Source of the DNA: an uncultured delta proteobacterium
GTDB taxonomy: Bacteria; Desulfobacterota; Binatia; UBA9968
Length of the DNA stretch: 64,000 bases
Assembly (NCBI GenBank): GCA_963745035.1
Contig: CAVUVW010000014.1
Coordinates: forward strand, 640,001-704,000
Direction of reading: 5' to 3'
In this document: piece after piece, positions 6,023-30,020 of the stretch
Layout of the letters: each line of letters begins with the position of its first letter
Numbering within the stretch: position 1 is the first letter of the stretch
Translations under genes and position numbers: made by a program
Notes under the pieces: generated by a model
Seen by the model: the letters and a program-made list of their open reading frames with translations, nothing else
Told to the model about the DNA's origin: nothing
Database searches by the model: none

Positions 6023-6050
6023 GGTATATTGGACCAAAGTCCAATATACC
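6023..6050 (+). promoter_or_regulatory. Palindromic operator copy 1 (TATTGGAC-CAAA-GTCCAATA, extended to 12-bp arms)
   Basis: GGTATATTGGAC CAAA GTCCAATATACC is a perfect inverted repeat, intergenic, and the core recurs in the window. Confidence 0.8.
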
Positions 6051-6382
6051 AGGTTTGGACGGTGCGCTAGAAAAATTTATCCGGACTATGAAGATATGCG
6101 GCGGCCGCGTCAAGGCGTGCCTATGAACAGCGGGATCATCGATGTCACTTAACAAAAGCGCTTGACCGACGCGCGCGAGGCATTGCGAAATTGCCAAAAA
6201 TTCAGATATGTTTGGCGCACAGTTGGAAGAGCGTGGGGCACAGCAGCGTGTTGATCGCTGCTATTTCCGGCATTGATGTTGCGCCGAACGCAGCTGTTGC
6301 GCGAGAGTGACGCTCTTTCATCTTCGAAGACCCCAAACGGTGTAGTGCAAGAGTCGCCATGCGAAGCGACAAGGGGGAAACG

Positions 6383-7529
6383 ATGAGCTCAACAAAAAAC
6401 GCGTGCGGGTTGCCTCTCGTCCTTTTGCTCGGGGGTTGCGCCACCGTTTCGGGGAGTTACCCTTTCCTCAACCCTACTCAGCCTACTTCCCTCTTTGGCG
6501 CTCTGACCCCCTCCACCAGCGCCTCGGTCCAGGGGCCGACGAGTTCTCAGCGCAGTTCATACGCGTGGGAAAAGGCAATGGAAGGCATGGTGATGGGCGC
6601 CGCCATGGGCGGGATTTATGGCGCCGGCGGCGGATTGGTGCTCGGCCTGCTCACCGGTCTTTTTACCGCCGACTCGCATTACACTCAGCGCAACACGCAA
6701 ATCTCGTCAGAACAGGAAAAAGATAAGCTGCTCGAAGCGAAGATCGAACAGGAGCTGGAACGACACAGACAGCTCGAGGCGCAGCTGGTCAATCCCGCCG
6801 TCGGATCAAAGTCGGCAAACCCAAGCGGGACCATCGCCACGCTCCGGAGAGTTGGCTTCTCCGGTGCTCACCCCCGTCGCCTCGACCTCGCCCAATCGCG
6901 TCGCTTCCTTGAGTCGGGCCGAAGCCCCTGCCCAGTCGCCAAGTAGGCCGTTTAAAAACGTCGAGGTCAAAGACATGAACGGCGACGGCATACCCGACCT
7001 GTGGATATATTACAGCCCCGCAAAGCCTGGCGAGATCGTTCGGCAGGAAGAAGCAACGCACGGAGATGGCAGAGTCGACACCTGGAGCTATTTCAGAGAC
7101 GGCAAACTGGTGCGTCGGGAGATCGATAGCCGAGGCAAGGGTGTGGCAGACACGGTCTACTTTTATGAAAACGATCAGTTGGTCCGGGAGGATCGTGATG
7201 AACTCGGCACAGGCCACGCTAACTTCCGTGCCTTTTACCAAGGTGGTCGCCTTGCGAAGGTGGAGAAAAATAGTAATGGCAGCGGCAGGACAGATCGGTG
7301 GATCTACTACGATACCAGCCAAAACGGCGAGATCGTACTAAGGGAAGAACAGGACCTGAACGGCGACGGCATCATCGATGTGTGGTCCCACTACGAAAAT
7401 GGACGTCTCGCGCGGCGCGATTTAAACGCCGTTGGACTGGAAGTGCTCTCTCAGAAGGATCAGCCTCCCCCTTCTCATGCCGTTCCCAAACAGACTTACC
7501 AACCTAAGCCTCCAGGCAACAGAGGCTGA
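6383..7529 (+). CDS. Putative lipoprotein with glycine-zipper/coiled-coil N-terminus and DxNGDG-repeat C-terminus, split by one frameshift near 6800
   Basis: ORF 6359-6946 has lipobox LGGC and GAAMGGIYGAGGG. Overlapping ORF 6618-7529 has DMNGDGIPD, THGDGRVD, NSNGSGRTD and DLNGDGIID repeats. Confidence 0.65.
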
Positions 7530-8074
7530 CGAAAAACTCGGGGTTCCAAGAACAACTCCCACGCAAGCGCGTCACACATGGGAGTTGCCTCGAAACGTTC
7601 TCCTCATCAACCAAGCCTCGGCGCTTGAGACGCTGCAGGGGGTTCTCATTCTCGATGCTGCGCCACCCTCGTCAGGCGGCGCTGGCGATCAGCTGCCGGT
7701 GAATATGATTTTTTTATGAAGTTACGATTGTGTCACACGATCGTAACAAGACTCGGATACTGCGAGCTGAGGTTTGGAACAGGATTGGACAGGCGAGCCG
7801 AAAGGCGTGCGAAAGCGCGTACCACCCACCAAGCAACGGTTGTGCTCCGAGCTGGGCCCCCTCGGCTGGCACTGTTGAAACCGCGATCGACTCGAAATGG
7901 AAGCCGATCATGGCGAGGGTGACGAGGCTTCGGTCTACCGAAGCCTCGTCACCCTCGTCCGTAGGACGTGAACGCCGCAGCCGTGCTCGACTCCAGCAAA
8001 CGTAAACCGTGATCGCTTCGCCCTTGCGTCGTTGATCGCGGCTACATGTCCGCTGGCCGGTGTTCATACCCCGC

Positions 8075-8482
8075 TCAGTCGTATCCCCAAACTTTGATGG
8101 TGGCCGTCGGTTTATTATCGAGGATCTTGTACTGGACCGCCACCGACGTGAGGGTCGCCTCGCGTCCTGGAGCGTCCTTCTCAGCCGTTTGTCCTCCCGA
8201 TTTCACGACTCCGACCTTCGTGATGGTGTCGTCCTTACGACCCTTCCAGCGGAGGACGACCTTCGTGATCTCCACGTCACCGCCCTCGACCGAGATCTTC
8301 ATCTTCTTGATGTCCTCCTTCCACATCTTCCCCGCTTCGGCCTTGATGTCCGTGTTTGGATCGGTGGCCTTGATCATCTTCTCGCTTAGCACAAACCACT
8401 CGTCAGCGCTGGCGCTGCCAAGGGCGACCAGCGAGAGGACCGATGCGAAGCCAACGGCCCTCCCTAGATATCCTATCTTCAT
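8075..8482 (-). CDS. Secreted hypothetical protein (possibly DUF2541/YaaI-like beta-sandwich)
   Basis: Signal peptide ending ASA, Lys-rich mature domain, AGGAG RBS upstream. Confidence 0.7.
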   Translation of the reverse strand: MKIGYLGRAVGFASVLSLVALGSASADEWFVLSEKMIKATDPNTDIKAEAGKMWKEDIKKMKISVEGGDVEITKVVLRWKGRKDDTITKVGVVKSGGQTAEKDAPGREATLTSVAVQYKILDNKPTATIKVWGYD

Positions 8483-8493
8483 CGTTTCTCCTG

Positions 8494-8675
8494 TCCTTTC
8501 TGATCCCCGTTAGCCGGAGATCGTTGCGCCTACCGCTTGGTGCGAGTTATACAGCGGCGGGACTGTCTGTGGAATATTAAACAACCTTTATTGTTCCCCT
8601 CCTTTCTGATCCCCGTTCGCACGAGATCGCTATGCCTATCGCTTGATCGAGTTACATAGCGGTGGAGATATCTGT
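8494..8675. repeat. Degenerate direct repeat, two ~76-bp copies (8494-8570, 8600-8675)
   Basis: Both copies begin tcctttctgatccccgtt and share gagatcg..gccta.cgcttg..gagtta..agcgg..tctgt. Confidence 0.8.
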
Positions 8676-8870
8676 AATTCTGGCTCGATCATTAGACTGT
8701 CTGAAAGCGTTGAGCATAGAAGTGTCAACTTGCCTGCGTCTACTCTTCTGCAGCGCGCGGCTTAACTTTATTGGATGGCAGACAAACCATTTCGCCACCT
8801 GAAAGGAAGATAATCTCCCGGGCAGTATTGGGGTCCACCAGCGTTCTACCAAAACCGGTGAGCCTGTGTG

Positions 8871-8890
8871 TATTGGCCTTTGGTCCAATG
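8871..8890 (-). promoter_or_regulatory. Palindromic operator copy 2
   Basis: TATTGGCC TTTG GTCCAATG (spacer reads CAAA on the minus strand), upstream of minus-strand gene 8075-8482. Confidence 0.7.
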
Positions 8891-8996
8891 GTCTTTTATC
8901 CATCGCGCCTTTCGCTCCATACGTCGATTCTTGTCGAAAGACTCCGAGAACATTTTGAAGCCGGCTAATGTGATATTTCCTTTTCGCTGGACATCT

Positions 8997-9644
8997 TTAC
9001 GGAGTTCTTAATGCCTTGCCACTAACGCTCTCATGCAAATCTACGTTGCTATTGAGAGCAGTCTCGGTTTCCATCGCTGCCACAAGTTCTTTCGAACCTG
9101 AGCCCCAGCGGGAGACAGAACTGAGCGCCTGGGTGAAGGGAATGTTTAGAGGGTGCACGCGTTCGCGGGTGAGAATGTAGACCGCTCCAGCGAAGGGCGT
9201 CGGCACTGAGGGCACAAAAACCGTGAAGCGCCCGTCCTCTAGTTCTTCGATAATAAACGCGGGGACGAGGGCCTCCTCAATCTCGACTAGCGCCGGCTTC
9301 CACGCGGTCTCCTCGTTCTCGCCCGCCAGGCGTTGAGTCAAACTCCGAAAAAGCGCATAACCCGGCATTCTTTCAAAAAAAGCTTTCTCGATTCGCTCCC
9401 GCATCGCTCGCCCTGCGCGCGTACGGACGGCAATGCCAATGAGACAACAGAGAATCACGACGAGGAGAAGAGAGAGAAGGCGCTCAGCGGGGAGCCACTC
9501 CGGGAGCAACATGGCGAATGGCCGCACAAAGCCGACTACCGATTGCATCGCCTTGAGTAGCAGCAGAATCGTGAGATAAAGGGGCACGACGACGAGCAAG
9601 CCGGTAACAAACGCGCTCACAACGAATTCACCGTACTTTTTCAT
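8997..9644 (-). CDS. DUF502 family membrane protein
   Basis: N-terminal TM helices (GLLVVVPLYLT) and C-terminal VFVPSVPTPFAG motif typical of DUF502. Confidence 0.8.
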   Translation of the reverse strand: MKKYGEFVVSAFVTGLLVVVPLYLTILLLLKAMQSVVGFVRPFAMLLPEWLPAERLLSLLLVVILCCLIGIAVRTRAGRAMRERIEKAFFERMPGYALFRSLTQRLAGENEETAWKPALVEIEEALVPAFIIEELEDGRFTVFVPSVPTPFAGAVYILTRERVHPLNIPFTQALSSVSRWGSGSKELVAAMETETALNSNVDLHESVSGKALRTP

Positions 9645-9736
9645 AGCCGGCCTTTCTCGGTATGGAGATCAGCGATCAGAAACAAAATATCCGAGTTGAT
9701 GACTCGCCTTACTCTCATAATCCCGCCACGGCTCCT

Positions 9737-11287
9737 CTATAATTGGTCCTCAATCGGCAGCATGCCGATGACGCCGATGAGAACCCTGTACAAGAAACCT
9801 GTTTCCGGATCTCTGTCGTACTCTACTTTTTCCTCGTTGTTCTCAGCGCTCCACACCAGATTATCGTCCTTGTCGAGCGTGACGCGAAAGGCGCTGCCGG
9901 GGGAGATCACTTCATCCATCAACTCTCCCACCCGGCCGGCAATCTCCGGACTGTCGATCATCACACCGATCTCGGTGTTGAGGACCGCCGATCGAGGATC
10001 GAGATTGAAACTGCCGATGAACACGGACTTGCGGTCGAACACCAGGGACTTGGCATGCAACGCAGCTCGCGATTTACCCGCCAACACCGACCAGATCCGT
10101 GGGATATCGGTATCCGCACGCAGCTCGTAGAGCTCGACGCCGGCATTGAGCAGTTTCTTGCGCGTATTGACATAGCCCGCAAGCGCAGGGATCACGTCAT
10201 GAGAGGCCGCGGAATTGGTCAACACGCGCACCTTGACACCGCGCGCCGTGAGTTGTCGCACCCTTTCGATCGTCGGGTCGCCCAGCACGAAATACGGCGA
10301 CTCGATCAACAGTTCGCGCTCCACCTCATTGGCCCGTTGGCGCAGTGCCGTAGTGATGACGGCGTCCGCATCGGCGGTAACCCTGGAGGGATTCTCGACG
10401 AAAACTTTGCCCGGGGCCCAGGTGAATGTGTCCCGGATCTCGACCAGACGCGAGCGAAGGTCGGCGAAATGTTCGTCGATGGGATAGGGATAGCCGGTGG
10501 CAGTGAGTTTTTCCTCTAATCGTTTCCTGAAGCCCTGCAAATGCCGTTCGGTCGCGCGCTCTTCCACGACCGCAGCGACGGGTAGTGCCCACTCGCTGTT
10601 CCAGAACCGATCGAAGCTCGCCGATAACTCGTTGACGATCGGACCGGCGCTCATAACATCGAGATCCACATAGTTATGGTCCTTGAGCACGCCAAAATAG
10701 ACGTCTGCGATGTTGCGTCCGCCGACAATTCCCACGGCGTTGTCCATGACGAACAGCTTGTTGTGCATCCGGTGGTTGACGCGGCCAAATTCGGCCAAGA
10801 AGCTCATGATGCGCCAACGCCGGTTCCTGACCGGGTTGAAGAAACGAATCTCGATGTTGGGATGGGCGTCGAGCGCCGCAATGTTGGCGTCTCTGGTTTC
10901 CGACATATAATGGTCGTCGATCAACAAGCGCACACGCACGCCGCGGTCCGCGGCACGCAGCAGCCGGTCGGCCAAGATCAGGCCGGTGGTATCGCCATCC
11001 CAGATGTAGTACTGCCCATCGAGCGTCTTTTCGGCTAAGTCGGCCATCGCCAGCCGAGCCATAAACGCCGGACCGCCTTGCCGAATAACAGCGAAGCCGG
11101 ATAACCCCGGATGTTTGTCGGCCGCTTCCTGAAACAGCGCGCCGACGCTAGTGGCTTGCGGATATGCGAAGGTATTTGACGGCGTGCGCGGATAATCCCA
11201 GATTATCGTCGGACTGCACGCGCTCGCAAGCAAGGCAACTGCGAGAATCAGGAACGTGCTTTTGGACAAGTAACATTGAGTAAACAT
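9737..11287 (-). CDS. clsC: Phospholipase D family protein, cardiolipin synthase ClsC/YmdC-like
   Basis: Two HKD motifs (RMHNKLFVMD..GGRNI and LHAKSLVFD..GSFNLDPRS..LNTE), plus lipobox LASAC. Confidence 0.85.
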   Translation of the reverse strand: MFTQCYLSKSTFLILAVALLASACSPTIIWDYPRTPSNTFAYPQATSVGALFQEAADKHPGLSGFAVIRQGGPAFMARLAMADLAEKTLDGQYYIWDGDTTGLILADRLLRAADRGVRVRLLIDDHYMSETRDANIAALDAHPNIEIRFFNPVRNRRWRIMSFLAEFGRVNHRMHNKLFVMDNAVGIVGGRNIADVYFGVLKDHNYVDLDVMSAGPIVNELSASFDRFWNSEWALPVAAVVEERATERHLQGFRKRLEEKLTATGYPYPIDEHFADLRSRLVEIRDTFTWAPGKVFVENPSRVTADADAVITTALRQRANEVERELLIESPYFVLGDPTIERVRQLTARGVKVRVLTNSAASHDVIPALAGYVNTRKKLLNAGVELYELRADTDIPRIWSVLAGKSRAALHAKSLVFDRKSVFIGSFNLDPRSAVLNTEIGVMIDSPEIAGRVGELMDEVISPGSAFRVTLDKDDNLVWSAENNEEKVEYDRDPETGFLYRVLIGVIGMLPIEDQL

Positions 11288-11361
11288 GTTTCACTCTCCT
11301 GGTAAGACACACGCCCCAACAGATGGGGCACCAGTAATTTAGCAGGGAGTAAATACAGAGC

Positions 11362-11409
11362 TATTGGACTTTGGTCCAATACGGCGGCTTGTTGGACCAA
11401 AGTCCAATA
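11362..11409. promoter_or_regulatory. Palindromic operator copies 3 and 4, back-to-back in a divergent promoter region
   Basis: TATTGGAC TTTG GTCCAATA (11362-11381) and TGTTGGAC CAAA GTCCAATA (11390-11409). Confidence 0.85.
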
Positions 11410-11615
11410 GAGCGGAAGTCACCCCGCTGATAGGCCGTATCTGGACCTAGTGATGCTTCGATTGACTGCAACGGAGGCGGAGCTGGTCGGAAAGAACTGT
11501 GCCCTACACGTGCAGCGGCAAAAACAATTCGCAAACCGGCTTCAAACCCTAGCACCAAATCCAAGTCACGATGAAGTCGCGAATCTCAGCGCAGGGTAAG
11601 CTACAGGAGGTAGAA

Positions 11616-14372
11616 ATGGTCACTAACATCGTCGATGTCACCGAGCAGAAGCGGCTCAACGAGGCACGTGAGGTGGGAATCCCGTGGAAGAAATGGGGGC
11701 CCTATCTCAGTGAACGCCAGTGGGGGACCGTGCGCGAGGACTACAGCCAGGACGGCAACGCTTGGGACTATTTTTCCCATGACCAGGCGCGCTCACGGGC
11801 TTACAGGTGGGGTGAAGACGGGCTTGGCGGACTGTCTGATGACAAGCAACGGTTGTGCTTTGCGCTGGCGCTGTGGAACGAGCGCGACCCAATTTTGAAA
11901 GAACGCCTATTCGGACTCACCAACAGCGAGGCGAACCATGGCGAGGACGTCAAGGAGTACTACTTTTATCTCGACAGCACGCCGACGCACTCGTACATGA
12001 AGTACCTCTACAAGTACCCGCAGCGGGAGTATCCCTATCGGGATCTTATCGAGACCAACCGGAGGCGCTCGCGGGAAGATTTTGAGTACGAGCTGCTTGA
12101 TACCGGCATCTTTGACGACGATCGGTATTTTGACGTGTTTGTGGAGTACGCCAAGGAAGGGCCGGAAGACATTCTTATCCGGATCAGCGTCCACAATCGG
12201 GGGCCCGAAGCGGCCCGGCTGCGTGTTTTGCCGACGCTGTGGTTCCGCAACACTTGGTCTTGGGGCGATGACGATCGCAAGCCTGCGCTGCGCAAAGCGG
12301 GACCTGCCGCTATTCAGACTTCCCACGATGAACTCGGTGAGTATCGGCTTTATTGTGACGGCGAGCCGGAGTTGCTCTTCACCGAAAACGAGAGCAATGC
12401 GCACCGTCTGTCGGGTCAACCGAACGGCTCTCCCTACGTCAAGGACGCATTCCACCAATACGTCATCTCGGGACGCAGCGACGCGGTGAATCCGGCCAAG
12501 ACGGGAACCAAGGCTGCGGCCCACTATGTTCTCGAGGTGCCCGGCGGCGGCGACAAGACCGTTCGCCTGCGTTTGGCCGCCGGCGAGACAAAAGATCCGT
12601 TTAGCGGTTTCGAGAAAATATTCACAAGCCGCATCGCCGACGCCGACGAATTTTACGAGCGGGTTACGCCGACGTCGCTGAACGAAGATCAGCGCCGAGT
12701 GCATCGCCAGGCGCTGGCGGGAATGCTGTGGAGCAAGCAGTTCTACTACTTCGACCTGGAACAGTGGCTGCGTGAGCACAAAAGTCATCCGCTGCTGGAG
12801 TCTGCCCGTAACAACGTGCGCAATACCGAGTGGTTCCACATGCTCAATGCCGACGTGATCTCGATGCCGGACAAGTGGGAGTATCCGTGGTATGCGGCCT
12901 GGGATCTGGCTTTTCATACGATTGCCCTGTCTCAGGTGGATTTTGATTTCGCCAAAGAGCAGTTGCTGCTTATGCTGCGCAGCCTGTACTTCCACCCGAG
13001 CGGGCAGATTCCGGCCTACGAGTGGAACTTCAGCGACGTCAATCCGCCGGTGCACGCCTGGGCTACGCTCTGGCTATACAGCTACGAGCGGCAGCTGGGC
13101 CGGGCCGACCTGCGGTTTCTGGAACGTTCGTTTCAGGGCTTGATGCTGAACTTCAACTGGTGGGTCAATCGTAAGGATCCTGCGGGACGTAACGTCTTCG
13201 CGGGAGGATTTCTGGGACTGGACAACATCGGCGTCTTCGACCGCAGCGCGCAGCTCCCCACGGGCGGCTCGCTGGAGCAGGCGGACGGCACCGCCTGGAT
13301 GGCGTTTTACTGCCAGAACATGTTGGAGATGGCGCTGATACTTTGCGAATACGACCCGATGTACGAAGAGATCGCCTTCAAGTTCCTCCAGCATTTCATG
13401 TGGATCGCCTATGCGATGGACCGGGTCGGTGAGCATCACGACGAGATGTGGGATGAGCAGGATGGCTTTTTCTATGATCTGCTGCGGTTGCCGGACGGGC
13501 AGGCGATGCGTTTAAAAGTAAGGTCGCTGGTCGGGCTGTTGCCGCTGTGCGCGTCGACGGTGATCGAGGCGAGCGATGCGACTCGATTTCCAAAACTTAC
13601 GGAAATGATCGCGCTGTTCCGCAAACGCCATCCCGAGTTGATTTCCCAGGTTGCCCCAACCGACGCCGGGTTTATCGGCTATAAAGAACGCCGGCTGTTA
13701 TCGATCTTCAACAAGAAAAAACTCGAGCGTGTGCTTGCTTACATGCTCGATGAGAACGAGTTTCTCGGGCCCCACGGCATACGCTCGGTGTCGCGCTATC
13801 ACCTGGAGCATCCGTTTGTGTTTCATGTCGGCGGTCAGGAATACAAAGTCCAGTACCTGCCGGCCGAATCGAATACCGGGATGTTCGGCGGCAACTCCAA
13901 CTGGCGCGGTCCGGTATGGATGCCGGTCAATGGGCTGATCGTCCGGGCGTTGTTAAACCTGTACACCTTCTACGGCGACGAATTCAAAGTTCAATGCCCG
14001 ACGGGTTCCGGGCGCTACATGACGTTGTTCGAGGTGGCCCAAGAAATCTCCCGCCGGCTGACCAGCACATTTCTCCGTGATAAGAACGGACAACGGCCGG
14101 TGTACGGCGGTACAGCCAAGTTCCAGGAAGATCCGTACTGGCGCGATCTGATTTTATTTTTCGAGTACTTCCACGGCGACAATGGCGCAGGGCTGGGCGC
14201 GAGCCACCAGACGGGATGGACGGGTCTGGTGGCGCCCCTGCTAGATTTGTTTGGGCGTCTCGATGCTAAGACCGTGCTTGAGACCGAACGCGGGCACGTG
14301 TTCGCCCGGGTCGTAAGGGAGCAGGTGGGCGGAGAAAAAACGGACGGGAAGGAAGCAGGGGCAATGCGCTAA
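11616..14372 (+). CDS. MGH1-like / GH63-related glucosidase
   Basis: WGPYLSERQWGTVREDYS, SMPDKWEYPWYAAWDLAFH, GGNSNWRGPVW, EYFHGDNGAGLGASHQTGWT. AGGAGG RBS before ATG 11616. Confidence 0.9.
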   Translation: MVTNIVDVTEQKRLNEAREVGIPWKKWGPYLSERQWGTVREDYSQDGNAWDYFSHDQARSRAYRWGEDGLGGLSDDKQRLCFALALWNERDPILKERLFGLTNSEANHGEDVKEYYFYLDSTPTHSYMKYLYKYPQREYPYRDLIETNRRRSREDFEYELLDTGIFDDDRYFDVFVEYAKEGPEDILIRISVHNRGPEAARLRVLPTLWFRNTWSWGDDDRKPALRKAGPAAIQTSHDELGEYRLYCDGEPELLFTENESNAHRLSGQPNGSPYVKDAFHQYVISGRSDAVNPAKTGTKAAAHYVLEVPGGGDKTVRLRLAAGETKDPFSGFEKIFTSRIADADEFYERVTPTSLNEDQRRVHRQALAGMLWSKQFYYFDLEQWLREHKSHPLLESARNNVRNTEWFHMLNADVISMPDKWEYPWYAAWDLAFHTIALSQVDFDFAKEQLLLMLRSLYFHPSGQIPAYEWNFSDVNPPVHAWATLWLYSYERQLGRADLRFLERSFQGLMLNFNWWVNRKDPAGRNVFAGGFLGLDNIGVFDRSAQLPTGGSLEQADGTAWMAFYCQNMLEMALILCEYDPMYEEIAFKFLQHFMWIAYAMDRVGEHHDEMWDEQDGFFYDLLRLPDGQAMRLKVRSLVGLLPLCASTVIEASDATRFPKLTEMIALFRKRHPELISQVAPTDAGFIGYKERRLLSIFNKKKLERVLAYMLDENEFLGPHGIRSVSRYHLEHPFVFHVGGQEYKVQYLPAESNTGMFGGNSNWRGPVWMPVNGLIVRALLNLYTFYGDEFKVQCPTGSGRYMTLFEVAQEISRRLTSTFLRDKNGQRPVYGGTAKFQEDPYWRDLILFFEYFHGDNGAGLGASHQTGWTGLVAPLLDLFGRLDAKTVLETERGHVFARVVREQVGGEKTDGKEAGAMR

Positions 14373-14482
14373 CTTGTGAAATGCTGCCCTATTTCAGAGT
14401 AACATCCATGCTTATCGTGCGAATCTATTTGCACGCTCGCGTCCAGGCAAGCTGAGAAAGAGCGACTTTAGAAGTTGCCGGC

Positions 14483-14873: not shown

Positions 14874-14943
14874 GCACTGGAGTGATCGCGCCGACGGGCC
14901 GAGCGATGGAAGTTATTCTCAGATCGCGCAAGACATCAAGAAC

Positions 14944-17789: not shown

Positions 17790-17799
17790 AAGGATTGGC

Positions 17800-18753: not shown

Positions 18754-18773
18754 TATTGGACTAAGGTCTAATA
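18754..18773 (+). promoter_or_regulatory. Palindromic operator copy 5
   Basis: TATTGGAC TAAG GTCTAATA, intergenic, upstream of 19025. Confidence 0.75.
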
Positions 18774-19024
18774 GATGGATCTCCGAGCCGTCCGGTATTC
18801 TTCCGTACCGATACAATCGCTAAAAGGTTTCGAGCTCACGTGTTTGGGGACGTAAAGGTGTTCTATACGTGCTGGTGTACAGCGGTGATCTGGACTGCGG
18901 AAATTGCTGGGCATCTTTCTAACGATGAACGCGTGCCAAGCCAAGATTGAGCGAAAGACACGCGCGAGGCTGTGATCCCTAAAGCCCATCACTTAGCGGG
19001 CAAACTGCGAGTTCGATCCGGGGA

Positions 19025-21250: not shown

Positions 21251-21357
21251 ACGAGAGAAGCGGCGCAAAGGCTCAGCAACATTGATCTGGTCGGTGGCGT
21301 CTGGCCTCGGCTAAACGGCAGTGTTGCGGCGAGTCAATAATTGAAGGGAGGCCAGAT

Positions 21358-22433: not shown

Positions 22434-22517
22434 CCCGCTTATTTCTGCATCGTAGTGCGCATGGCACCTTTTTGGTTCTCCGCCCTGGGGTTGAGCCATC
22501 GCGGTGCTGCTTCGGCG

Positions 22518-22537
22518 TATTGGACTAAAGTCCAATA
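22518..22537 (+). promoter_or_regulatory. Palindromic operator copy 6
   Basis: TATTGGAC TAAA GTCCAATA, ~105 bp upstream of ATG 22642. Confidence 0.85.
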
Positions 22538-22641
22538 TCCGTTGGCCGGTCTGTTCTGTTATCAAAGTCGGCATTGTTCAGGAACTGGCGATTCGGGTCG
22601 GATGAAAGTGAAGTGTTTTGCGAGGAGGAGGAGAAGAAGCC

Positions 22642-23151
22642 ATGCATATAAATAAGGTCTGCCAGTTGGCTGCGGCCGGATGGCTGGTTGCTTTGACTGG
22701 GTTCATCCAGCCCGGTTGGGCTCAGAGTAAATCAGCCCCGGGCGATAAGCCGGCAAGCAATTTGGAAATCATCCACGAGAAGCTTAAGGCGGATAAAAAA
22801 TTGATCGTCGCCAAGTATATGGAATTAACCGAGTCGGAGGCGAAGAAGTTCTGGCCGGTCTTTGAGGAATATCAAAGCGATCTTCAGAAAACCAACGAGC
22901 GTCTGCGGCGTTTGCTCGAAAGCTACGCTGCGGATTACCGGAACAAATCTTTGACGGATGAGAAGGCGAAGAAGCTCCTCGACGAATGGATTGTGATCGA
23001 GCAGGAGGAGGGAAAACGCCGCAGCACGTTCGCGCCGAAGGTGCTGCAAACGTTACCGGCAAAAAAGGCTGCCCGCTACCTGCAGATTGAAAACGAGTAC
23101 CGGACTTTGTTGCGATACGATCTTGCGGAGACGGTGCCGCTGGTCCGTTAG
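22642..23151 (+). CDS. Secreted alpha-helical hypothetical protein (paralog of 23920-24408)
   Basis: Signal peptide (GWA/Q), strong RBS, ADKKLIV..MELTESEAKKFWPVFEEYQ. Confidence 0.85.
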   Translation: MHINKVCQLAAAGWLVALTGFIQPGWAQSKSAPGDKPASNLEIIHEKLKADKKLIVAKYMELTESEAKKFWPVFEEYQSDLQKTNERLRRLLESYAADYRNKSLTDEKAKKLLDEWIVIEQEEGKRRSTFAPKVLQTLPAKKAARYLQIENEYRTLLRYDLAETVPLVR

Positions 23152-23227
23152 AAACGAAATAAAATTGACTCGAAATCGTTGCAACCGGTGATTCCACTGC
23201 CGATCCGCAGTTTCAAGGGAGAAAAAG

Positions 23228-23821
23228 ATGAGATTCGCTTATTGTAAAGCAAAGAGAATGCGCGCTGTGGCGGCTCTCCGGTGCGGTATCTTAATAGCGG
23301 CCGTCGCTCTGGGCATCAGTATTACGAGTCCGGTTCTGTCCTGGGCCGGGAGCGCTGCACAGATCGACCGCGACGCCACGCAGTCGTTAAACGCGCTGTA
23401 CAAAAACAATCCCGGTGCTAAAGCGCTGGCTGACAAGTCCGTGGCTGTGTTGGTCTTTCCCAGCATCGTCAAAGGGGGGTTTATCATTGCCGGCCAATTC
23501 GGTGACGGAGCATTGCGTAAAAACGGCAAGACCGTGGGATATTATCGATCGCTGGCTGGTTCGTATGGATTTCAGGCCGGAGCGCAAGCATTCGGCTATG
23601 TTCTATTCTTCATGGATGACGCCTCGGTTGCGTATCTCGATAAGAGCGATGGTTGGGAGCTCGGCACCGGACCCAGTCTGGTCGTGCTGGATGAGGGCTT
23701 TGGCAGAAACTTTACGACAACTACGCTGCAGAAGGGGGTTTACGCGTTCATCTTCGATCAGAAGGGATTGATGGGCGGTATTGGCATTCAAGGATCGAAG
23801 ATTACCAAAATCAATCCGTAG
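23228..23821 (+). CDS. Lipid-binding SYLF/YSC84-related protein
   Basis: LVFPSIVKGGFIIAGQFGDG, GSYGFQAGAQ, KGLMGGIGIQGSKI. Confidence 0.85.
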   Translation: MRFAYCKAKRMRAVAALRCGILIAAVALGISITSPVLSWAGSAAQIDRDATQSLNALYKNNPGAKALADKSVAVLVFPSIVKGGFIIAGQFGDGALRKNGKTVGYYRSLAGSYGFQAGAQAFGYVLFFMDDASVAYLDKSDGWELGTGPSLVVLDEGFGRNFTTTTLQKGVYAFIFDQKGLMGGIGIQGSKITKINP

Positions 23822-23919
23822 TGGAATCAACGGTGAGTGTGAATGTCAGTCGCGAGTGCTCGACTCCAGAGATAGGGTTGGTGTTAGTGTAACACCTGCA
23901 CTGAAACAAAAAGGAGAAA

Positions 23920-24408
23920 TTGATGAGTAGAGTTTATGCCACAGGAATCGGCGCTGCGTTGGCCATAATGTTTTGCTTTGCACCACTCGGCACGGCGCAG
24001 GACAAGCCCGCCGACAATATGCAAATACTGCGCGATAAAATCAGGGCCGACAAAAAGTTGGTCGTGGCGACAAATATGGAACTGACCGAGTCGGAGGCGA
24101 AAAACTTTTGGCCGATCTATGAGCAGTACCAAAAAGATCTGCAAAAGATCAATCAACGGTTGGTCAATGTGCTGGAGAGCTACGCCGACGATTTTAAGAA
24201 GAAATCGCTTACCGACGATAAGGCGAAAAAATTGATCGATGAAGCGTTGGCCATTGACCAGCGAGAGGCCGCCCTGAAGGGCACCTATGCTCCGAAACTC
24301 AGCAAGGCGCTGCCGACGATTAAAGTCGTCCGTTACCTGCAGATCGAGAATAAGATCAGGGCGGTCGTCCGATATGAAATCGCCTCGGGTGTACCGCTGG
24401 TGCGATAG
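23920..24408 (+). CDS. Secreted alpha-helical hypothetical protein (paralog of 22642-23151)
   Basis: Signal peptide. ADKKLVV..MELTESEAKNFWPIYEQYQ..RYLQIENK..VPLVR. Confidence 0.85.
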   Translation: MMSRVYATGIGAALAIMFCFAPLGTAQDKPADNMQILRDKIRADKKLVVATNMELTESEAKNFWPIYEQYQKDLQKINQRLVNVLESYADDFKKKSLTDDKAKKLIDEALAIDQREAALKGTYAPKLSKALPTIKVVRYLQIENKIRAVVRYEIASGVPLVR

Positions 24409-24615
24409 AGAGTGGCTGAGCGTCGCGGAGCGAGCGTCGGCTGATGAAGTGCAGAGAGAACCAAAGGGTTACTTACAAAATTTTTGTCGGAACCCTCACC
24501 CGACACCGACACGCGAAAACTGAAACCTCATCCCCCGTGCCTGATAGACACACGATGGACACGAACTGCGTGTGTCGGATCGCTGCACGGGCGTTCAGTT
24601 AGATAGGATACTGTT

Positions 24616-25479
24616 GTGAATTCAAAAAAGATCGCTTCTGGTTTACTGTTCGCGGTTCTGTCGCTTACTCAGTCGGTGATGGCCCAGGAACTGGACGGGA
24701 CGCTCAAGAAGATTAAGACCTCGGGCGAGTTGACGCTGGGTTATCTTACTTCGGCGCCGCCATTTTCATTTCCGGGGCCGGACAAACGGCCTGTCGGTTA
24801 CTCTATCGATCTCTGCACCCATATCGCCAGCAGCATTCAGAAACAGCTTAGCGTCAATCTCAAACTGAACTGGGTTCCAGTAACGACGGACAACCGGCTC
24901 GAGATGGTCGCATCCGGTAAAGTCGATATCGAATGCGGCACCAGCACGCAGACTCTTTTGCGCCAAGAGCGGGTCGATTTCAGCCTGATGACTTTCGTCG
25001 ACGGCGGCGGGTTGTTGACCAAAAAAGATCTTAGTCTACGCGCCGTCGCCGATCTCACGGATAAACGTATCGCTGTCATCCCGGGGACAACCACCGAAAC
25101 TGCATTGAGCAAATTTCTCAAAGAAGAATTTGTCAGCGTGCAAGAAGTCAAAGTCAAAAACCACGTTGAGGGACTTGCGGCGATCGAGAAGGGAGCAGCG
25201 GATGCTTTTGCTTCCGACCGCGGTATCCTCATCGGCCTCGTGGTAACGTCCAAAGACCCCAGTCTGTTCGCCCTGCCGCCTATTCTGTTCTCTTACGAGC
25301 CGTATGGTTTCATGGTGCGGCGCAATGACGCGGCTTTTCGGCTTGCCATCAATCGGGCGCTGGCCGGGCTGTACCGTTCCGGCGGTATCGTGACCGTGTA
25401 CGATCGCTGGTTCGGCGCCTTCGGCAAACCGAGTCAAGCTATCCAAGCCATGTACCTCCTCCATGGCTTGCCCGAATAG
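24616..25479 (+). CDS. Amino-acid ABC transporter substrate-binding protein (GltI-like)
   Basis: GTLKKIK, PPFSF, GYSIDLC, DIECGTS, RVDFS, GTTTE, SYEPYGFM. Confidence 0.88.
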   Translation: MNSKKIASGLLFAVLSLTQSVMAQELDGTLKKIKTSGELTLGYLTSAPPFSFPGPDKRPVGYSIDLCTHIASSIQKQLSVNLKLNWVPVTTDNRLEMVASGKVDIECGTSTQTLLRQERVDFSLMTFVDGGGLLTKKDLSLRAVADLTDKRIAVIPGTTTETALSKFLKEEFVSVQEVKVKNHVEGLAAIEKGAADAFASDRGILIGLVVTSKDPSLFALPPILFSYEPYGFMVRRNDAAFRLAINRALAGLYRSGGIVTVYDRWFGAFGKPSQAIQAMYLLHGLPE

Positions 25480-25852: not shown

Positions 25853-25870
25853 GCCCGCGCGGGTAAACGG

Positions 25871-28800
25871 ATGAAATTGCTGCGCCGGTCGATCATCCTT
25901 TCTATCACCATCGGGTTTCTGTTTGCGGTCGGAGCGATTCTCGTTCCGCGCATCATCGACAGCCAGCTGATTCGCGATGCGATCAGGGCCGAATTATCCA
26001 AGCACTTCGACAACCACCTGGTGATCGGCCGAATCGCGGTGGCATGGTTCCCCCATCCGAGAGCGGTAGTCGAGGCTGCGGAACTCTCCTTCGGCGCAAA
26101 CCAGCAAGCCTCGATCCGTTCCCTCGAACTCTATCCGTCGTTTCTTGCTCTCCTCTCGGGTCGGCTGACGCCGGCGCGGGTGGTCTTGATCGAGCCTAAG
26201 CTCAAAATTCACTTACGGGTTGAGCCGGATCAATCGTTCGATCTCGACAGCATCGAGAAGAACATCGCTGCCGCACTCGCAGGACTCACCCGAGACCTCC
26301 GAACATCTCATATCGCCGTCATCGGCGGTTCGGCGGAGCTTGCCATCGACGCGAGACCTCCGGTCATTTTCGAAGATGTCTCGGCTCGAGCTGCTGCTTC
26401 ACCGGAAACATTAGAGTTCGAAATGAGCGCTCGCTCCAGCCTCTGGCAAGCCTTGGCCGTGAAGGGAAAGGTTTCGGCGGAAAGGCTGGCATTCCAACTC
26501 GACATCGCCGTCCAAAGACTGAAGATCAATGAGTCCCTGGCATTTTTCCCTTCCTCCGACTTCGGGTCCACGCCTGGCGGAAACGCGAGCTTTGAATTGG
26601 AGGTTTCCGGCGTGGGATTGCGCCGCGTGAAAGCTGCGCTTGGAAGTATCCCCGAGCCGTTGGTCATCGCGCGGCGCGGCCGTGGCGGTTTCTTTGAAAT
26701 CCAGCAATTAAAAGGCGCGATATCCTACGAAGAAGGCGGGTATGAACTCGACGTAGAGCAACTCGATCTCGCTTCACCGCGGCTCAGCGCATCAGGGAAG
26801 ATCCAATCTAAAGGTGACCGGATATCCGCAAGTATCAAAGCCCATGATCTGGATATCGCCGAGGTTCACCATCTCATACTTGGAATCGCCGATGGGAACG
26901 CGAATGTGGAGAATAGTCTCCGCTATGTTTCCAAGGGAACGATTGCTGATCTCTACATCCAAAGCGCTGGACGTTCGCTCGCCGAGTTAGCTTCCATCAA
27001 GAATATGGTTCTCTCTGGCAAGCTGCGAAATTGCAGTGTGGTGGTCCCTGGCTATGATCTGGAGCTGGAAAACGTCACTGCGAGCGTGCGCGTGGCCGAA
27101 AATCAGTTAAAGGCGGACAGCATAAGCGTAAGTCTCGGCGCCGTCCGCGGCCGCTCCGGCGCGCTCCGGCTCGGTCTGGAAGGGCGGCGAGCGCCCTTTC
27201 ATTTCGATGTCGAGGTTCAAGCCGGTGCACCCGAGCTGCTCGGCGTTTTGCACAAAGCCGCGCGCAGTGATGCCTTTCGAGCCGAGGTACGGAAGCTGCG
27301 TAACGTCGATGGCGTGCTCTCCGGCAGGTTGATCCTCGGCGAGACTCTCGATGCAATTTCCGTTGAGCTCTTGATCTCGGATGCCGACGTCCGTGCCGAA
27401 TACGAGCAGGTTCTGTTTCCCATCGCGATTCGAGATGGCCGGTTGAATTACGGGGGGAACGTTCTTCGCATCGAAGATCTCAGGGGCTCGGTGGGAAATT
27501 CCCGCTTCGATCTCGTTGGCATCACGTTCCATCATGACGGAAATCGCCGTCTCGATATCCAATCCAAGCGGACCTCATTGGATTTGCAGGAAGCGGAGGC
27601 TTTCGTTCGAATTGTTCCAGCTTTGCGGCGACAGTTCCAAAAGCTCAAGTCGGTGCGGGGGAGGGCCGAGTTGGCGGCTTTCACACTGACAGGGCCCTAT
27701 GATGATCCTTCGCAGTGGAGCTTTGCGAGCACGGGCAGTTTGGACCGAGTCGAGCTCCAGCACGACGATCTTCCTGCGCCCCTGACTGTGATCAGCGCGG
27801 GGTTCGACGCAAACCGGCAGCGGGTTCTGTTCTCCAATACGGACGCCACGATGTCGGACGCGAAATTATCTGCCGGCGGAAAAGTCGAATACCCGGCAGA
27901 ACAGCCGGTTCATGCCGAGATCAGCGGGCACGCAACCATTGGCGAACACGTGACCGAACAGCTCAGCCGCTCTGTCCAACTGCCGCAACAGCTACGGTTA
28001 CGCGCGCCGCTGGAGGTCGTTGCCGAGCGTCTCACATGGACCGCGGGCGGTGACACTTCATTCCTCGGCCAGGCTGCGTTGCCGGGCGGAGCGCTCCTGA
28101 AGGTCGATGCCGTGAAGCGGTCGCGGGAGCTCGTTTTGAACGATGTCACACTGGATGATCTCGAAAGACGCGCTCGGGTGACCCTTCACCTTGCCGATGA
28201 TCACTTTCTTTTCTCTTTCAACGGCGAGTTGACACAGGACACTATCGACAGCGTATTTGCCTCTCCGCCGATGCAAGCGGGTTTACTGCGCGGAGACTTC
28301 CAGGTCAGCGCTGTATGGGAAGATCCGATGACGATGTCCGCAACCGGCCAAGTGAGCGGCAGTAATCTATTCGTCCCGTTCGGAGACGAAAAAGCTCTGG
28401 TCGAAGAATTCAGCGTGGCGGCAAGTGGAGACCGCCTGCAGGTCCGATCGGCAGATTTGCTCTGGCGTGACAGTCGATTGCGGATGTCCGGCCAAGTGGG
28501 CATCGGCAAGGAGGTATTGCGCTTAGATTTAGATGCTACGGCGGACCGGCTCCGCCTGGAAGAGTTAAATCGGCTGTTCGACGACGCGAGGGACAAAAGC
28601 GTCCGCAGCGTTGCGCTGCCTCGTGTGGAAGGTAGAATCGGACTCAAGCTAGACAGTCTCGTGGCAGAAAGTTTCACCGTCGATGCCCTACAAATCGACA
28701 CTGCCTTCGCGCGGTCCTCCGTTAGAGCCGAAATCAAACGGGGCGTAGTCTGCGGCATCAACACCACCGGCCGTTTGGACCTCGGCGAGGGCGACATCGA

Positions 28801-29467
28801 TTTCGATCTCCGATTTATGGTCAAAGAGGGTGATCTTGAACCGACCACTGTCTGCCTGACCACTCAGCAAAGCGATGTAAAGGGTACTTATTCTTTAAGC
28901 GCACGGCTTTCCGGAAAGGGCAGCCGGCAGAACTTGCGATCGGCCCTCAAGGGCAATTTCCAACTGACGGCCCGAAAGGGCGAGTTCATCCGGTCCGCCG
29001 GTCTCGATGCGACGTTTGACTATTTGAATGACTCGGGCGACTTTGCGGTGGCGTTCCCGGATCTCAACAAGGAAGCCTTTGCTTATGAACTGCTCGCCGC
29101 AAAGGGAAGCATCGACGGCCAACGCTTGCAAACTGACGAAATTCTCATCCACGCCGCTCCGCTTATGATTGCCGGCCAGGGGACCTTTGATCTGCAGGAG
29201 AAACAGATGGATGCGAAGGGTCTGGTGTCGGTTGTATCGCCCGCCCGCCTGCTTATCAGACGCATTCCGGTGATCGGCGCGATCCTAGGCGGCTCACTCG
29301 TGGGCATCCCGATCCGGGTCAAAGGATCCTTTGATCGACCCGATATCAGTTATCTCTCGCCGGCAGACGTGGGCGCCGAGCTGGTGAATATTCCCTTGAG
29401 ACTTCTCGGAATGCCAATCGATGCGATCAAGGTATTCATCCCGAGCGGCACAAACGGCGACCCATAG
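25871..29467 (+). CDS. AsmA-like family protein (N-terminal TM, C-terminal AsmA_2-like region)
   Basis: 1198 aa, single N-terminal TM, beta-repeat body, C-terminal RRIPVIGAILGG..IPIRVKGSFDRP. Confidence 0.8.
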   Translation: MKLLRRSIILSITIGFLFAVGAILVPRIIDSQLIRDAIRAELSKHFDNHLVIGRIAVAWFPHPRAVVEAAELSFGANQQASIRSLELYPSFLALLSGRLTPARVVLIEPKLKIHLRVEPDQSFDLDSIEKNIAAALAGLTRDLRTSHIAVIGGSAELAIDARPPVIFEDVSARAAASPETLEFEMSARSSLWQALAVKGKVSAERLAFQLDIAVQRLKINESLAFFPSSDFGSTPGGNASFELEVSGVGLRRVKAALGSIPEPLVIARRGRGGFFEIQQLKGAISYEEGGYELDVEQLDLASPRLSASGKIQSKGDRISASIKAHDLDIAEVHHLILGIADGNANVENSLRYVSKGTIADLYIQSAGRSLAELASIKNMVLSGKLRNCSVVVPGYDLELENVTASVRVAENQLKADSISVSLGAVRGRSGALRLGLEGRRAPFHFDVEVQAGAPELLGVLHKAARSDAFRAEVRKLRNVDGVLSGRLILGETLDAISVELLISDADVRAEYEQVLFPIAIRDGRLNYGGNVLRIEDLRGSVGNSRFDLVGITFHHDGNRRLDIQSKRTSLDLQEAEAFVRIVPALRRQFQKLKSVRGRAELAAFTLTGPYDDPSQWSFASTGSLDRVELQHDDLPAPLTVISAGFDANRQRVLFSNTDATMSDAKLSAGGKVEYPAEQPVHAEISGHATIGEHVTEQLSRSVQLPQQLRLRAPLEVVAERLTWTAGGDTSFLGQAALPGGALLKVDAVKRSRELVLNDVTLDDLERRARVTLHLADDHFLFSFNGELTQDTIDSVFASPPMQAGLLRGDFQVSAVWEDPMTMSATGQVSGSNLFVPFGDEKALVEEFSVAASGDRLQVRSADLLWRDSRLRMSGQVGIGKEVLRLDLDATADRLRLEELNRLFDDARDKSVRSVALPRVEGRIGLKLDSLVAESFTVDALQIDTAFARSSVRAEIKRGVVCGINTTGRLDLGEGDIDFDLRFMVKEGDLEPTTVCLTTQQSDVKGTYSLSARLSGKGSRQNLRSALKGNFQLTARKGEFIRSAGLDATFDYLNDSGDFAVAFPDLNKEAFAYELLAAKGSIDGQRLQTDEILIHAAPLMIAGQGTFDLQEKQMDAKGLVSVVSPARLLIRRIPVIGAILGGSLVGIPIRVKGSFDRPDISYLSPADVGAELVNIPLRLLGMPIDAIKVFIPSGTNGDP

Positions 29468-29586
29468 ATTCTTCGACGGTCACGTTCCTAGGTGCAACAT
29501 CGAAAGTTAACGCACCGGAGCCACGCAAAGGCTATGTTGCACATTTTCAAAATAAGTGCCGAGCAGATTAGCGGAGGGAGGCGCTC

Positions 29587-29988
29587 ATGGACCGACACTT
29601 TACTCTAAAAATCATGGCGGTGTTGGCGGTCGCCCAAGGAATCGCCGGGATCCTGCGGGCATTTAATTGGATGCAAATCGGCGTCAATCTTTTTGGCCAA
29701 GGAATTTTGCTCCTGCCGCTCGTCGGTGCGGTGGCAGTCTTGCGCGGCCTTTTTATCTCTACCGTGGCGCTGTTTTACCTATTGTTTGCGGTCGGCGCGC
29801 TGCTCGGAAAACGCTGGTCTCGATGGCTCGGCTTAACTGCGGCAATCATCAACCTGCTGCTTGTCGCGAGCGTGCTCGTGCAGGGGGCAAATCTTGGAGA
29901 AGCGCTCGCTTGGTCGGTCATACCGGCGGTTCTCGTGATCTACCTGTTTTCAAAAGCCGGGGGGAAAGCCATCGACGCCGCATCATAG
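29587..29988 (+). CDS. Small 4-TM membrane protein
   Basis: Hydrophobic 133-aa ORF with GGAGG RBS. Confidence 0.75.
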   Translation: MDRHFTLKIMAVLAVAQGIAGILRAFNWMQIGVNLFGQGILLLPLVGAVAVLRGLFISTVALFYLLFAVGALLGKRWSRWLGLTAAIINLLLVASVLVQGANLGEALAWSVIPAVLVIYLFSKAGGKAIDAAS

Positions 29989-30000
29989 GGTGCCGGCTCG

Positions 30001-30020
30001 TGTTAGACCAACGTCCAATA
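30001..30020 (+). promoter_or_regulatory. Palindromic operator copy 7 (degenerate)
   Basis: TGTTAGAC CAAC GTCCAATA, 56 bp upstream of 30076. Confidence 0.65.

Follow-up and report, generated by a model that had tools for sequence, protein, structure and literature searches.

A 20-bp palindrome, TATTGGAC-YAAR-GTCCAATA (hereinafter, the box), is repeated in front of genes in a 64,000-nucleotide stretch of DNA (the window) from an uncultured bacterium of the class Binatia (Desulfobacterota; GenBank assembly GCA_963745035.1), where a FixJ-type response regulator most likely docks on it. Our analysis supports a FixJ-subfamily regulon with a DosR-like box that takes the form of a small module across phyla and is expanded to a 160-kb block in this genome. 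We consider it likely, on the strength of sequence comparisons, that the box is the operator of a FixJ-subfamily regulator with a helix-turn-helix (HTH) domain of the NarL/LuxR class, that this regulator is partnered by a FixL-like kinase, and that the regulon is of the oxygen type.

The window corresponds to positions 640,001-704,000 of contig CAVUVW010000014.1 (C14) in the 7.43-Mb assembly of 28 contigs. A search of these 64 kb with the pattern TATTGGACNNNNGTCCAATA, allowing up to three mismatches, returned exactly seven matches (positions 6027, 8871, 11362, 11390, 18754, 22518, and 30001), each with 0-2 mismatches, compared to a mean of 0.06 and a maximum of one match in 100 dinucleotide-preserving shuffles of the window; no match was found past position 30,020. 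All seven boxes are located outside of the open reading frames (ORFs) picked by a crude codon-usage gene caller, at 55-390 nt from the first downstream ORF. In coordinate order, the spacers are CAAA, TTTG, TTTG, CAAA, TAAG, TAAA, and CAAC, with TTTG only at 8871 and 11362, the two sites for which the nearest gene is on the minus strand. A previous sequence-only reading of the window had reported the seven copies, their intergenic placement and distances to gene starts, their absence beyond 30 kb, and an asymmetric spacer that points at the downstream gene (TTTG for minus-strand targets, 7 of 7 sites), and all of these claims were borne out.

The island described in that reading is real, but the window holds just the last fifth of it. 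Across the whole assembly, 24 sites match the box with at most two mismatches, 23 of them in C14:510,407-670,001 (the block) and the remaining one at C13:352,881. The weight-matrix scan suggested in the sequence-only reading separated these sites cleanly from the rest of the genome: under a matrix built from the same 24 sites, they score 28.6-38.3 bits, and the next-best position of the 7.4-Mb genome, which falls in a coding region, reaches 13.1 bits. The scores are cleanly bimodal, and the genome contains no weak copies of the box. By the crude gene calls (coding fraction 0.76), 22 of the 24 sites are intergenic, and the other two (554,601 and 554,766) sit in the over-extended 5' end of one ORF call. 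At all 24 sites, the A-rich strand of the center (YAAR) is the coding strand of the next gene, which starts 39-460 nt downstream. The block is strongly strand-biased: of 115 crude gene calls, 97 fall on the plus strand. About 81 of the block genes are co-directional with, and uninterruptedly behind, a box. An even spread of copies over coding or convergent regions, which had been named as the mark of a mere repeat, was not seen; the copies precede genes and are oriented to them.

Alignment of the 24 sites showed that their flanks are unrelated except for a short element about 20 nt downstream of the box, in which 16 of the 24 have T at offset 22 and 17 have A at offset 23. Among 47 boxes adjacent to homologous regulators in other genomes (see below), T occupies offset 22 in 33, A offset 23 in 36, and T offset 27 in 38; G is found at offset 20 in 25 of these foreign boxes. 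Offsets 22-27 are the predicted -10 hexamer, TAnnnT. Given this fixed offset, the center of the box lies 31.5 bp upstream of the first -10 base, at about -43, a numbering that derives from the spacing and not from mapped transcript starts. No conserved -35-like hexamer was found at the expected place, where the last two box bases and offsets 1-4 read TA-[T/G][A/C]C-N. This arrangement, a box centered at about -43 in place of a -35, is that of an activator-dependent sigma-70 promoter of the class-II type, in which the activator site replaces or overlaps the -35 at a fixed distance from the -10, as the box does with respect to TAnnnT. The boxes of the window, with the -10 hexamers inferred from this spacing, are as follows:

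6027..6046, plus strand: box 1, TATTGGACCAAAGTCCAATA, 0 mismatches, facing lipoprotein-like ORFs at 6359-7529; putative -10 TAGAAA at 6068..6073 (plus), starting 22 nt after the box
8871..8890, minus strand: box 2, 2 mismatches, spacer CAAA on the minus strand, facing the minus-strand ORF 8075-8482; putative -10 TAGAAC at 8843..8848 (minus)
11362..11381, minus strand: box 3, 0 mismatches, facing a PLD-family gene (9737-11287, minus) and a DUF502 gene (8997-9644, minus); putative -10 TAAATT at 11336..11341 (minus)
11390..11409, plus strand: box 4, 1 mismatch, back to back with box 3, facing genes for a GH63/MGH1-like protein (11571-14372), an alpha-amylase-family protein (15429-16910), an EAL protein (16986-17789), and a tandem universal stress protein (USP; 17800-18639); putative -10 TAGGCC at 11431..11436 (plus)
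18754..18773, plus strand: box 5, 1 mismatch, facing genes for a membrane protein (19025-20089), a lipoprotein (20183-21250), and an AI-2E-type transporter piece (21717-22256); putative -10 TATTCT at 18796..18801 (plus), offset 23
22518..22537, plus strand: box 6, 0 mismatches, facing 22618-23151, SYLF/Ysc84 (23228-23821), 23920-24408, SBP_bac_3 (24616-25479), and YhdP-like (25871-29467) genes; putative -10 TATCAA at 22560..22565 (plus), offset 23
30001..30020, plus strand: box 7, 2 mismatches, the final box of the block, facing an Lnb_N/DUF4105 gene (30076-31134); putative -10 TAGTTT at 30042..30047 (plus)

The boxes probably have their regulator gene near the left border of the block, at a distance of 120 kb upstream from the window. 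In Pfam scans covering about 120 block ORFs, this border proved to carry a gene for a kinase of 1259 residues (C14:515,370-519,149) that contains an ABC_sub_bind-like region, four PAS domains, HisKA, and HATPase, directly followed by a regulator gene (C14:519,224-519,868) encoding Response_reg and GerE domains. A box is located 65 nt past the stop codon of the regulator and 39 nt ahead of a gene for a stand-alone receiver of 146 residues that retains the phospho-acceptor Asp. The sequence-only reading had placed a NarL/FixJ-type response regulator outside of the window and proposed a search for a NarL-family regulator and kinase with the motif nearby, and this pair with its adjoining box agrees with both. 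The closest solved relatives of the regulator are StyR (6e-59) and FixJ (2e-43), with DevR (3C3W) remote at 2e-9, which rules it out as a DosR ortholog; the DNA-binding domain alone matches StyR at 9e-16 and DosR at 0.007-0.03. The best NCBIfam models are FixJ for the regulator (216 bits, cut-off 255) and FixL for the kinase (422 bits, cut-off 850). The regulator belongs to a FixJ-like subfamily that has neither a name nor an equivalog model. No close paralog of it was found in this genome.

The kinase is a probable heme oxygen sensor. Its core is FixL-like (7e-57), and the PAS domain at residues 757-878, for which the best match is an unnamed multi-sensor kinase entry, aligns with the heme-PAS domains of DosP (4e-16) and FixL (1e-13 to 2e-14). 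The His of its GAHPAH motif aligns with position 77 of DosP, which we take to be the proximal heme ligand of that protein, and is followed 20 residues on by an Arg, a spacing that presumably matches the His-Arg pair of FixL; the position of DosP Met95 is occupied by Ala. With His and Arg retained at this spacing, the pocket looks FixL-like, that is, the predicted heme domain would contain both the proximal His and the O2-contacting Arg by which FixL is recognized. The kinase inputs encoded next to homologous regulators differ among phyla (PAS only, MEDS+PAS, dCache+PAS, or Reg_prop/Y_Y_Y), so that the output module is conserved across phyla and the signal is not.

Within the genus, the box and the regulator largely occur together. 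The core TTGGAC-N4-GTCCAA is present in 18 of 24 congeneric genomes (1-16 copies, compared to 0-1 for the reversed control); a second family has it in 2 of 5 genomes, and a third in none of 11. An ortholog of the regulator (at least 52% identity over about 200 residues) was identified in 14 of 30 congeners. Among the 24 genomes searched for both, boxes are present in all 12 that have the ortholog and absent from 6 of the 12 that lack it. These counts include an unpublished genome (G005) with eight boxes and the ortholog, in which a box lies between regulator and receiver on contig C295; it enters none of our other results. In G003, G004, G014, G018, and G019, the boxes are clustered within 35-100 kb downstream of the regulator, on its strand. 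We compared orthologous promoters in five relatives by a crude rule that takes the first ORF after each box and yields some spurious picks. Shared box-preceded families include the receiver (5 of 5 genomes for which its region was retrieved), OprB porins, DUF4105 (the target of box 7, box-preceded in G003), DUF3604, sulfatase, OmpA, and two unnamed families. Absence of the motif from orthologous promoters had been named as grounds for abandoning the regulon; in the families just listed the box is shared, and many singletons remain among the box-preceded families.

A regulator-based scan of species-representative genomes yielded 80 loci with regulators 49-74% identical to the one described here. 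The best homologs come from two Candidatus Binatia metagenome-assembled genomes (MAGs), which fits the non-actinobacterial host assumed in the sequence-only reading. The other loci belong to Acidobacteriota, Verrucomicrobiota, Planctomycetia, Gemmatimonadota, Zixibacteria, Krumholzibacteriia, Omnitrophota, Methylomirabilia, Rokubacteria, and gamma- and betaproteobacteria, including many Paraburkholderia. Counting boxes with at most two mismatches in the 12 core positions and at most 450 bp after the regulator gene, we found one in 48 of the 80, invariably with the same orientation and the YAAR center, compared to a chance expectation of about 1.5 by our own estimate under equal base frequencies. 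The box-bearing loci represent Binatia, Acidobacteriota, Verrucomicrobiota, Planctomycetia, Zixibacteria, Krumholzibacteriia, Omnitrophota, Methylomirabilia, Burkholderiaceae, and others. Of 60 loci examined, 39 have a stand-alone receiver as the next ORF downstream of the box; some of the 21 misses are due to ORFs picked in the wrong frame where the DNA is GC-rich. In other phyla, each of five genomes contains 1-4 sites, all beside the regulator, with the exception of Pararobbsia, in which about 10 sites are dispersed; therefore, the large contiguous regulon appears to be an expansion specific to this Binatia lineage. The recurrent neighbors of the module across phyla are PPK2, SYLF, sulfatase-like proteins, and RND/OEP efflux components, not respiratory genes.

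Two of these neighbors recur in detail. PPK2 adjoins the regulator module in Acidobacteriota and Burkholderiaceae (loci L015, L038, and L085), in L038 with a reversed box 83 nt upstream of its start, and is encoded twice in the Binatia block (C14:548,851-549,666 and 632,936-633,847). The SYLF/Ysc84 gene behind box 6 is flanked by 22618-23151 and 23920-24408 of the window, which encode two secreted paralogs, each about 170 residues long and without a match in Pfam. Paraburkholderia has a comparable unknown-SYLF-unknown cassette next to its homologous two-component system (L038:1494-3861).

The form of the box co-varies with the recognition helix of the regulator, as direct recognition would predict. 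The helix EKT[IV]KVHR (35 loci) is associated with the canonical box, with 0-2 mismatches in 24 of the 35 loci, and EKTIKIHR (25 loci, Burkholderiaceae) with the variant box GTGGAC...GTCCTA. No box (4-5 mismatches) accompanies QRTVEIHR (3 loci, FixJ-like), ERTVKAHR (1 locus), or EKTIEFHR (1 locus).

The units behind the boxes, listed from left to right along the block as recognized in the Pfam scans, are the following:

Mla-like ABC lipid transporter, in a unit that possibly continues into the genes for kinase and regulator
Receiver, DUF3300, DUF2950, B12-radical-SAM protein, MASE1-PAS kinase
Patatin, MltF-like protein, FGE-sulfatase, SBF, sulfatase
HAD, beta-carbonic anhydrase, SulP
Divergent units, with MlaA, GH63-like protein, and PPK2 on one side and DUF3604, PPIase, and HupE on the other
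OprB porins, CusF-like protein, sulfatase
OprB, alpha-carbonic anhydrase, MscS
DUF4410, glycine-zipper proteins
SpoIIAA-like protein, SDF carrier
RND pump in pieces with OEP; NrfA further on
Tat-signal FdnG-like molybdoenzyme, NrfD-type subunit, DASS carrier
Fumarate reductase, aspartase, DASS carriers, fumarase, then a long boxless tail with PPK2, MgtC, SulP, glycogen phosphorylase, phosphoketolase, and G6PD
Window 1..5882, plus strand: end of the boxless tail, with glycogen phosphorylase (ends at 1626), phosphoketolase (1885-4389), and G6PD (4464-5882)
The seven units inside the window, as listed above
C13:352,881, the site outside of the block: OmpA protein, second PLD

The FdnG-like molybdopterin oxidoreductase (C14:603,364-606,435) is encoded in two ORFs split by one in-frame TGA at codon 205 (HQARLUHSS) and has a Tat-type signal; a tRNA-Sec gene is present at C17:371,273-371,367. 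This protein is very likely a selenocysteine-containing formate dehydrogenase. The predicted formate dehydrogenase, the fumarate reductase with its feeder enzymes and carriers, and the nitrite reductase make up a coherent putative anaerobic respiratory set, and the domain content of the other block genes points to remodeling of envelope, ions, and reserves. The low-oxygen-type program proposed in the sequence-only reading is consistent with boxes in front of anaerobic respiration operons and with the proximal His retained in the kinase PAS domain.

Some features of the block and its border stand apart. The RND efflux operon directly behind a box (C14:594,266-597,849) is fragmented into a 119-residue CusB-like piece and three ACR_tran ORFs that cover model positions 46-327, 428-504, and 868-1020, and the box-preceded homologs in G003 and G019 are full-length (about 412 residues). 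This operon represents either a decaying pump or frameshifts in the MAG assembly. The boxless tail forms part of a 31-kb plus-strand stretch of about 25 genes without a box (C14:614,669-646,027, including window 1-5882) that extends from fumarate reductase through PPK2, MgtC, and SulP to glycogen phosphorylase, phosphoketolase, and G6PD and implies either other promoters or very long transcription units. Just left of the block, C14:504,090-509,813 encodes a 1907-residue protein with two UvrA_inter and two UvrA_DNA-bind matches which, given this duplication of UvrA-type domains, has the appearance of a UvrA-like ATPase of double length.

Soil and rhizosphere RNA libraries cover only small shares (at most 0.20) of window 9000-15000, and comparison of four of these libraries with window 5500-25000 yielded short contigs that are 95-99% alike. 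On the GH63/MGH1-like gene (window 11359-13962), such contigs pile up, with a summed word depth of 50-330 compared to 0-5 at the neighboring genes; the pile-up may consist of conserved parts of many relatives and not necessarily reflect high expression. Logan contigs carry no transcript starts, strand, or level and, therefore, bear neither on induction nor on start sites.

Under the model that we favor, the kinase would sense a gas or redox signal, most likely falling O2, via its heme-PAS-like domain and would phosphorylate the regulator, in line with what is established for the family. The regulator dimer would then bind the palindrome at about -43 and recruit sigma-70 RNA polymerase as a class-II-type activator. 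The 24 promoters of this kind would drive the mostly co-oriented 160-kb block and, with it, a program of anaerobic respiration; envelope and lipid remodeling (OprB, OmpA, Mla-like transporter, PLD, patatin, YhdP-like protein, and DUF4105); and ion and bicarbonate handling (SulP, carbonic anhydrases, and MscS), together with PPK2, glycosidases, USP, and EAL proteins. The first box after the regulator would drive the receiver, which probably feeds back on the kinase or drains phosphate in a FixT-like manner.

The same regulator could act as a repressor that occludes the -35 region, with de-repression in its unphosphorylated state. The box does cover the -35 position, where occupancy can block RNA polymerase, but a promoter that lacks a conserved -35-like hexamer should be weak without help, and both FixJ and DosR are activators, so we regard repression as improbable. 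StyR, the closest solved homolog, also activates from about -40 (excerpt of PMC2442086). A harder question is posed by the signal. The same system could respond to NO, CO, redox or energy state, or an envelope cue and control a general stress or stationary-phase program: the kinase inputs vary across phyla with regulator, box, and receiver constant, most targets are envelope, transport, and storage genes without an obvious tie to O2, and none of the recurrent neighbors across phyla (PPK2, SYLF, sulfatase-like, RND/OEP) is respiratory. However, the kinase in this genome appears by alignment to have the His...Arg heme pocket of the FixL/DosP type, and box-preceded operons encode formate dehydrogenase and the fumarate respiration set, genes that belong to the anaerobic regulon in Escherichia coli. 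We therefore consider a signal other than oxygen rather unlikely here, while taking it seriously.

Readings that dispense with the FixJ-like regulator fare worse. A CRP/FNR-type dimer could read the box as TTGGA-N6-TCCAA, a CRP-like 5-6-5 element at a class-II position, and reduce the FixJ-like regulator to a conserved neighbor; two proteins that bind cyclic nucleotide monophosphates (cNMPs) are encoded in the block, and the lxa locus of Burkholderia uses an Anr-like motif (excerpt of PMC3721108). No HTH was detected in either cNMP-binding protein, and the one encoded beside two boxes (C14:578,905-579,552) was rejected as a candidate on this ground. Furthermore, the FixJ-like regulator is the sole DNA-binding protein that travels with the box across phyla, the form of the box co-varies with its recognition helix, and 6-4-6 palindromes are the usual geometry of GerE-type dimers, all of which makes another factor very unlikely. 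If the palindrome acted as RNA, namely, as a hairpin of the 5' untranslated region with an 8-bp stem and a 4-nt loop that stabilizes the transcript or binds a protein, this would explain why the center is strand-specific at 24 of 24 sites here and at every regulator-adjacent site elsewhere, and two RNA-library contigs do include boxes 5 and 6. We deem such a role extremely unlikely: the TAnnnT -10 follows the box at a constant spacing and does not precede it, the stem is conserved in its very sequence and shows no compensatory changes, and the box co-varies with a DNA-binding helix, whereas the contigs are of low depth and, being Logan contigs, cannot show starts or strand. There is, finally, next to no chance that the palindrome is a repeat spread via a cassette array, similar to repetitive extragenic palindromes, miniature inverted-repeat transposable elements, or integron attC sites. 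Many near-identical copies indeed stand between co-oriented gene groups, and weak copies are absent from the genome, but only 20 bp are repeated, the flanks being unrelated apart from the -10; the copies precede genes at promoter distance instead of lying 3' of genes, and distant phyla have this same box next to the regulator, in one or a few copies. No tRNA genes were found in 20 kb around the left edge of the block or in one internal 20-kb stretch, and no integrase family turned up in the general Pfam scans of the block.

Activation by the FixJ-like regulator under an oxygen signal thus remains our preferred reading, and several observations weigh against it. A symmetric dimer does not explain the strictly strand-specific YAAR center, and the gap without intermediate-score sites is unusual for a regulon. 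Some congeners have boxes and no detected ortholog of the regulator: G011 with 13 boxes, one of them beside a receiver gene, in an assembly 88% complete and split into about 680 contigs in which no full regulator was found; G006, 99% complete, with three boxes; G013 with three matches, one canonical; and G001, G016, and G022 with one match each. In 32 of the 80 loci, no box with at most two mismatches follows the regulator, many of these loci carrying a diverged box, for example, in Burkholderiaceae, with G for T and T for A at outer core positions. The co-variation of helix and box is confounded with phylogeny because the variant is confined to essentially one clade. The genes for glycogen phosphorylase, phosphoketolase, and G6PD are 25-31 kb away from the closest box on their upstream side (C14:614,669), which makes their control by it uncertain. 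Two low-depth RNA-library contigs cross boxes 5 and 6, where read-through transcripts or carried-over DNA could account for them. As for oxygen, the signal cannot be general given the variation of kinase inputs among phyla, and in this genome, it rests on one aligned PAS domain; binding and activation by the regulator and the oxygen signal are all predictions from comparative evidence.

A broader scenario, which we put forward as a possibility short of probable, is that one heme sensor directly commands a contiguous, co-oriented 160-kb hypoxia domain through 24 near-identical class-II promoters; that this domain arose within a single genus of Binatia through expansion of an ancient, pan-bacterial module (kinase, regulator, box, and feedback receiver) that serves no more than 1-4 promoters in other phyla; and that the strand-specific AA center is a built-in direction signal telling a symmetric dimer which way to fire RNA polymerase. 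The assignment of an operator and a promoter architecture to a FixJ-like subfamily in soil and sediment bacteria of at least 10 phyla, mostly uncultured, makes it possible to predict, in any genome, the regulon of what was an orphan two-component system. For Binatia, a class known only from metagenomes, it is a pointer to a facultatively anaerobic life with formate-, fumarate-, and nitrite-linked respiration switched on as a block. The block is an extreme case of a regulon physically kept with its regulator and is useful for asking why regulons cluster. Cultured Paraburkholderia carry a slightly diverged module, so the model is directly testable.

Among known systems, FixL-FixJ of rhizobia, Caulobacter, and the Burkholderia cepacia complex resembles the one described here in the best NCBIfam models, the FixL-like kinase core, and the heme-PAS His and Arg. 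A stand-alone receiver behind its own box also has a counterpart in Caulobacter FixT, a feedback inhibitor that is a stand-alone receiver under the control of its own system (excerpt of PMC7078487). Unlike FixL and FixJ, both proteins here score below the equivalog cut-offs given above. The published FixJ site at fixK is TAAGTAATTTCCCTTA; fixK and nifA essentially make up the conserved regulon of FixJ, which acts via the FixK cascade (excerpt of PMC4999443). In contrast, the box is unrelated to TAAGTAATTTCCCTTA, the 24 promoters are predicted to be driven directly, with no FixK-type factor seen, and the recognition helix is EKT[IV]KVHR instead of PRT[VI]EV[HY]R.

The likeness to DosS/DosT-DosR of Mycobacterium tuberculosis that the sequence-only reading had stressed extends to the length and the GGAC-N4-GTCC core of the box, a 20-bp palindrome, and probably to two lysines of the recognition helix, but not to the proteins: the regulator is no DosR ortholog and the kinase differs in its sensory domains. 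DosS and DosT carry GAF domains, whereas the Pfam search of this kinase gave no GAF match at E up to 1e-5 and identified PAS domains instead. A heme-based sensor (predicted here) and USP among the targets are common to both systems; the target content is otherwise largely different. The published DosR consensus is TTSGGGACTWWAGTCCCSAA (excerpts of PMC2275270 and PMC2703886), and the box differs from it in its flanks, TTGGAC/GTCCAA instead of GGGAC, and in the fifth base. The three base-contacting residues of DosR are Lys179, Lys182, and Asn183 (excerpt of PMC4082495), and K30, K33, and V34 of the DNA-binding-domain query fall on DevR 179, 182, and 183, so that both lysines would be retained and Asn183 replaced by Val; the residues were matched from ungapped aligned ranges (query 1-46 to DevR 150-195), in which tags may shift the chain numbering.

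We found no published description of the box in the literature outside of subscription journals and supplements: a text search with its sequence returned only unrelated primer matches, and the papers found on DosR motifs outside of actinobacteria, on FixJ sites, and on Binatia and FixLJ contained none.

StyS-StyR and TodS-TodT of Pseudomonas are similar in that no solved structure is closer to the regulator than StyR, whether the full-length protein or the DNA-binding domain is compared, and that the palindromic operator of StyR has 6-4-6 geometry. StyS and TodS have a double-sensor architecture, in contrast to the single HisKA/HATPase core here; the operator sequence differs as well, and the targets in the block are respiration, envelope, and transport genes, not those of styrene and toluene (aromatic) catabolism. 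Activation by StyR-P proceeds from a high-affinity site located about 40 bp ahead of the start (excerpt of PMC2442086). The closest parallel in layout is the lxa locus of Burkholderia cenocepacia, which comprises about 50 contiguous genes, including USPs, storage, transport, and regulatory genes, is induced by low O2, and has one motif at 17 intergenic points, TGA-N6-TCA, attributed to Anr/FNR-like regulators (excerpt of PMC3721108). The Binatia block is about three times larger and has a GerE-type box. Because the lxa motif, as given in that excerpt, is Anr-like, we regard lxa as an analog of the block in layout and reject it as a homolog.

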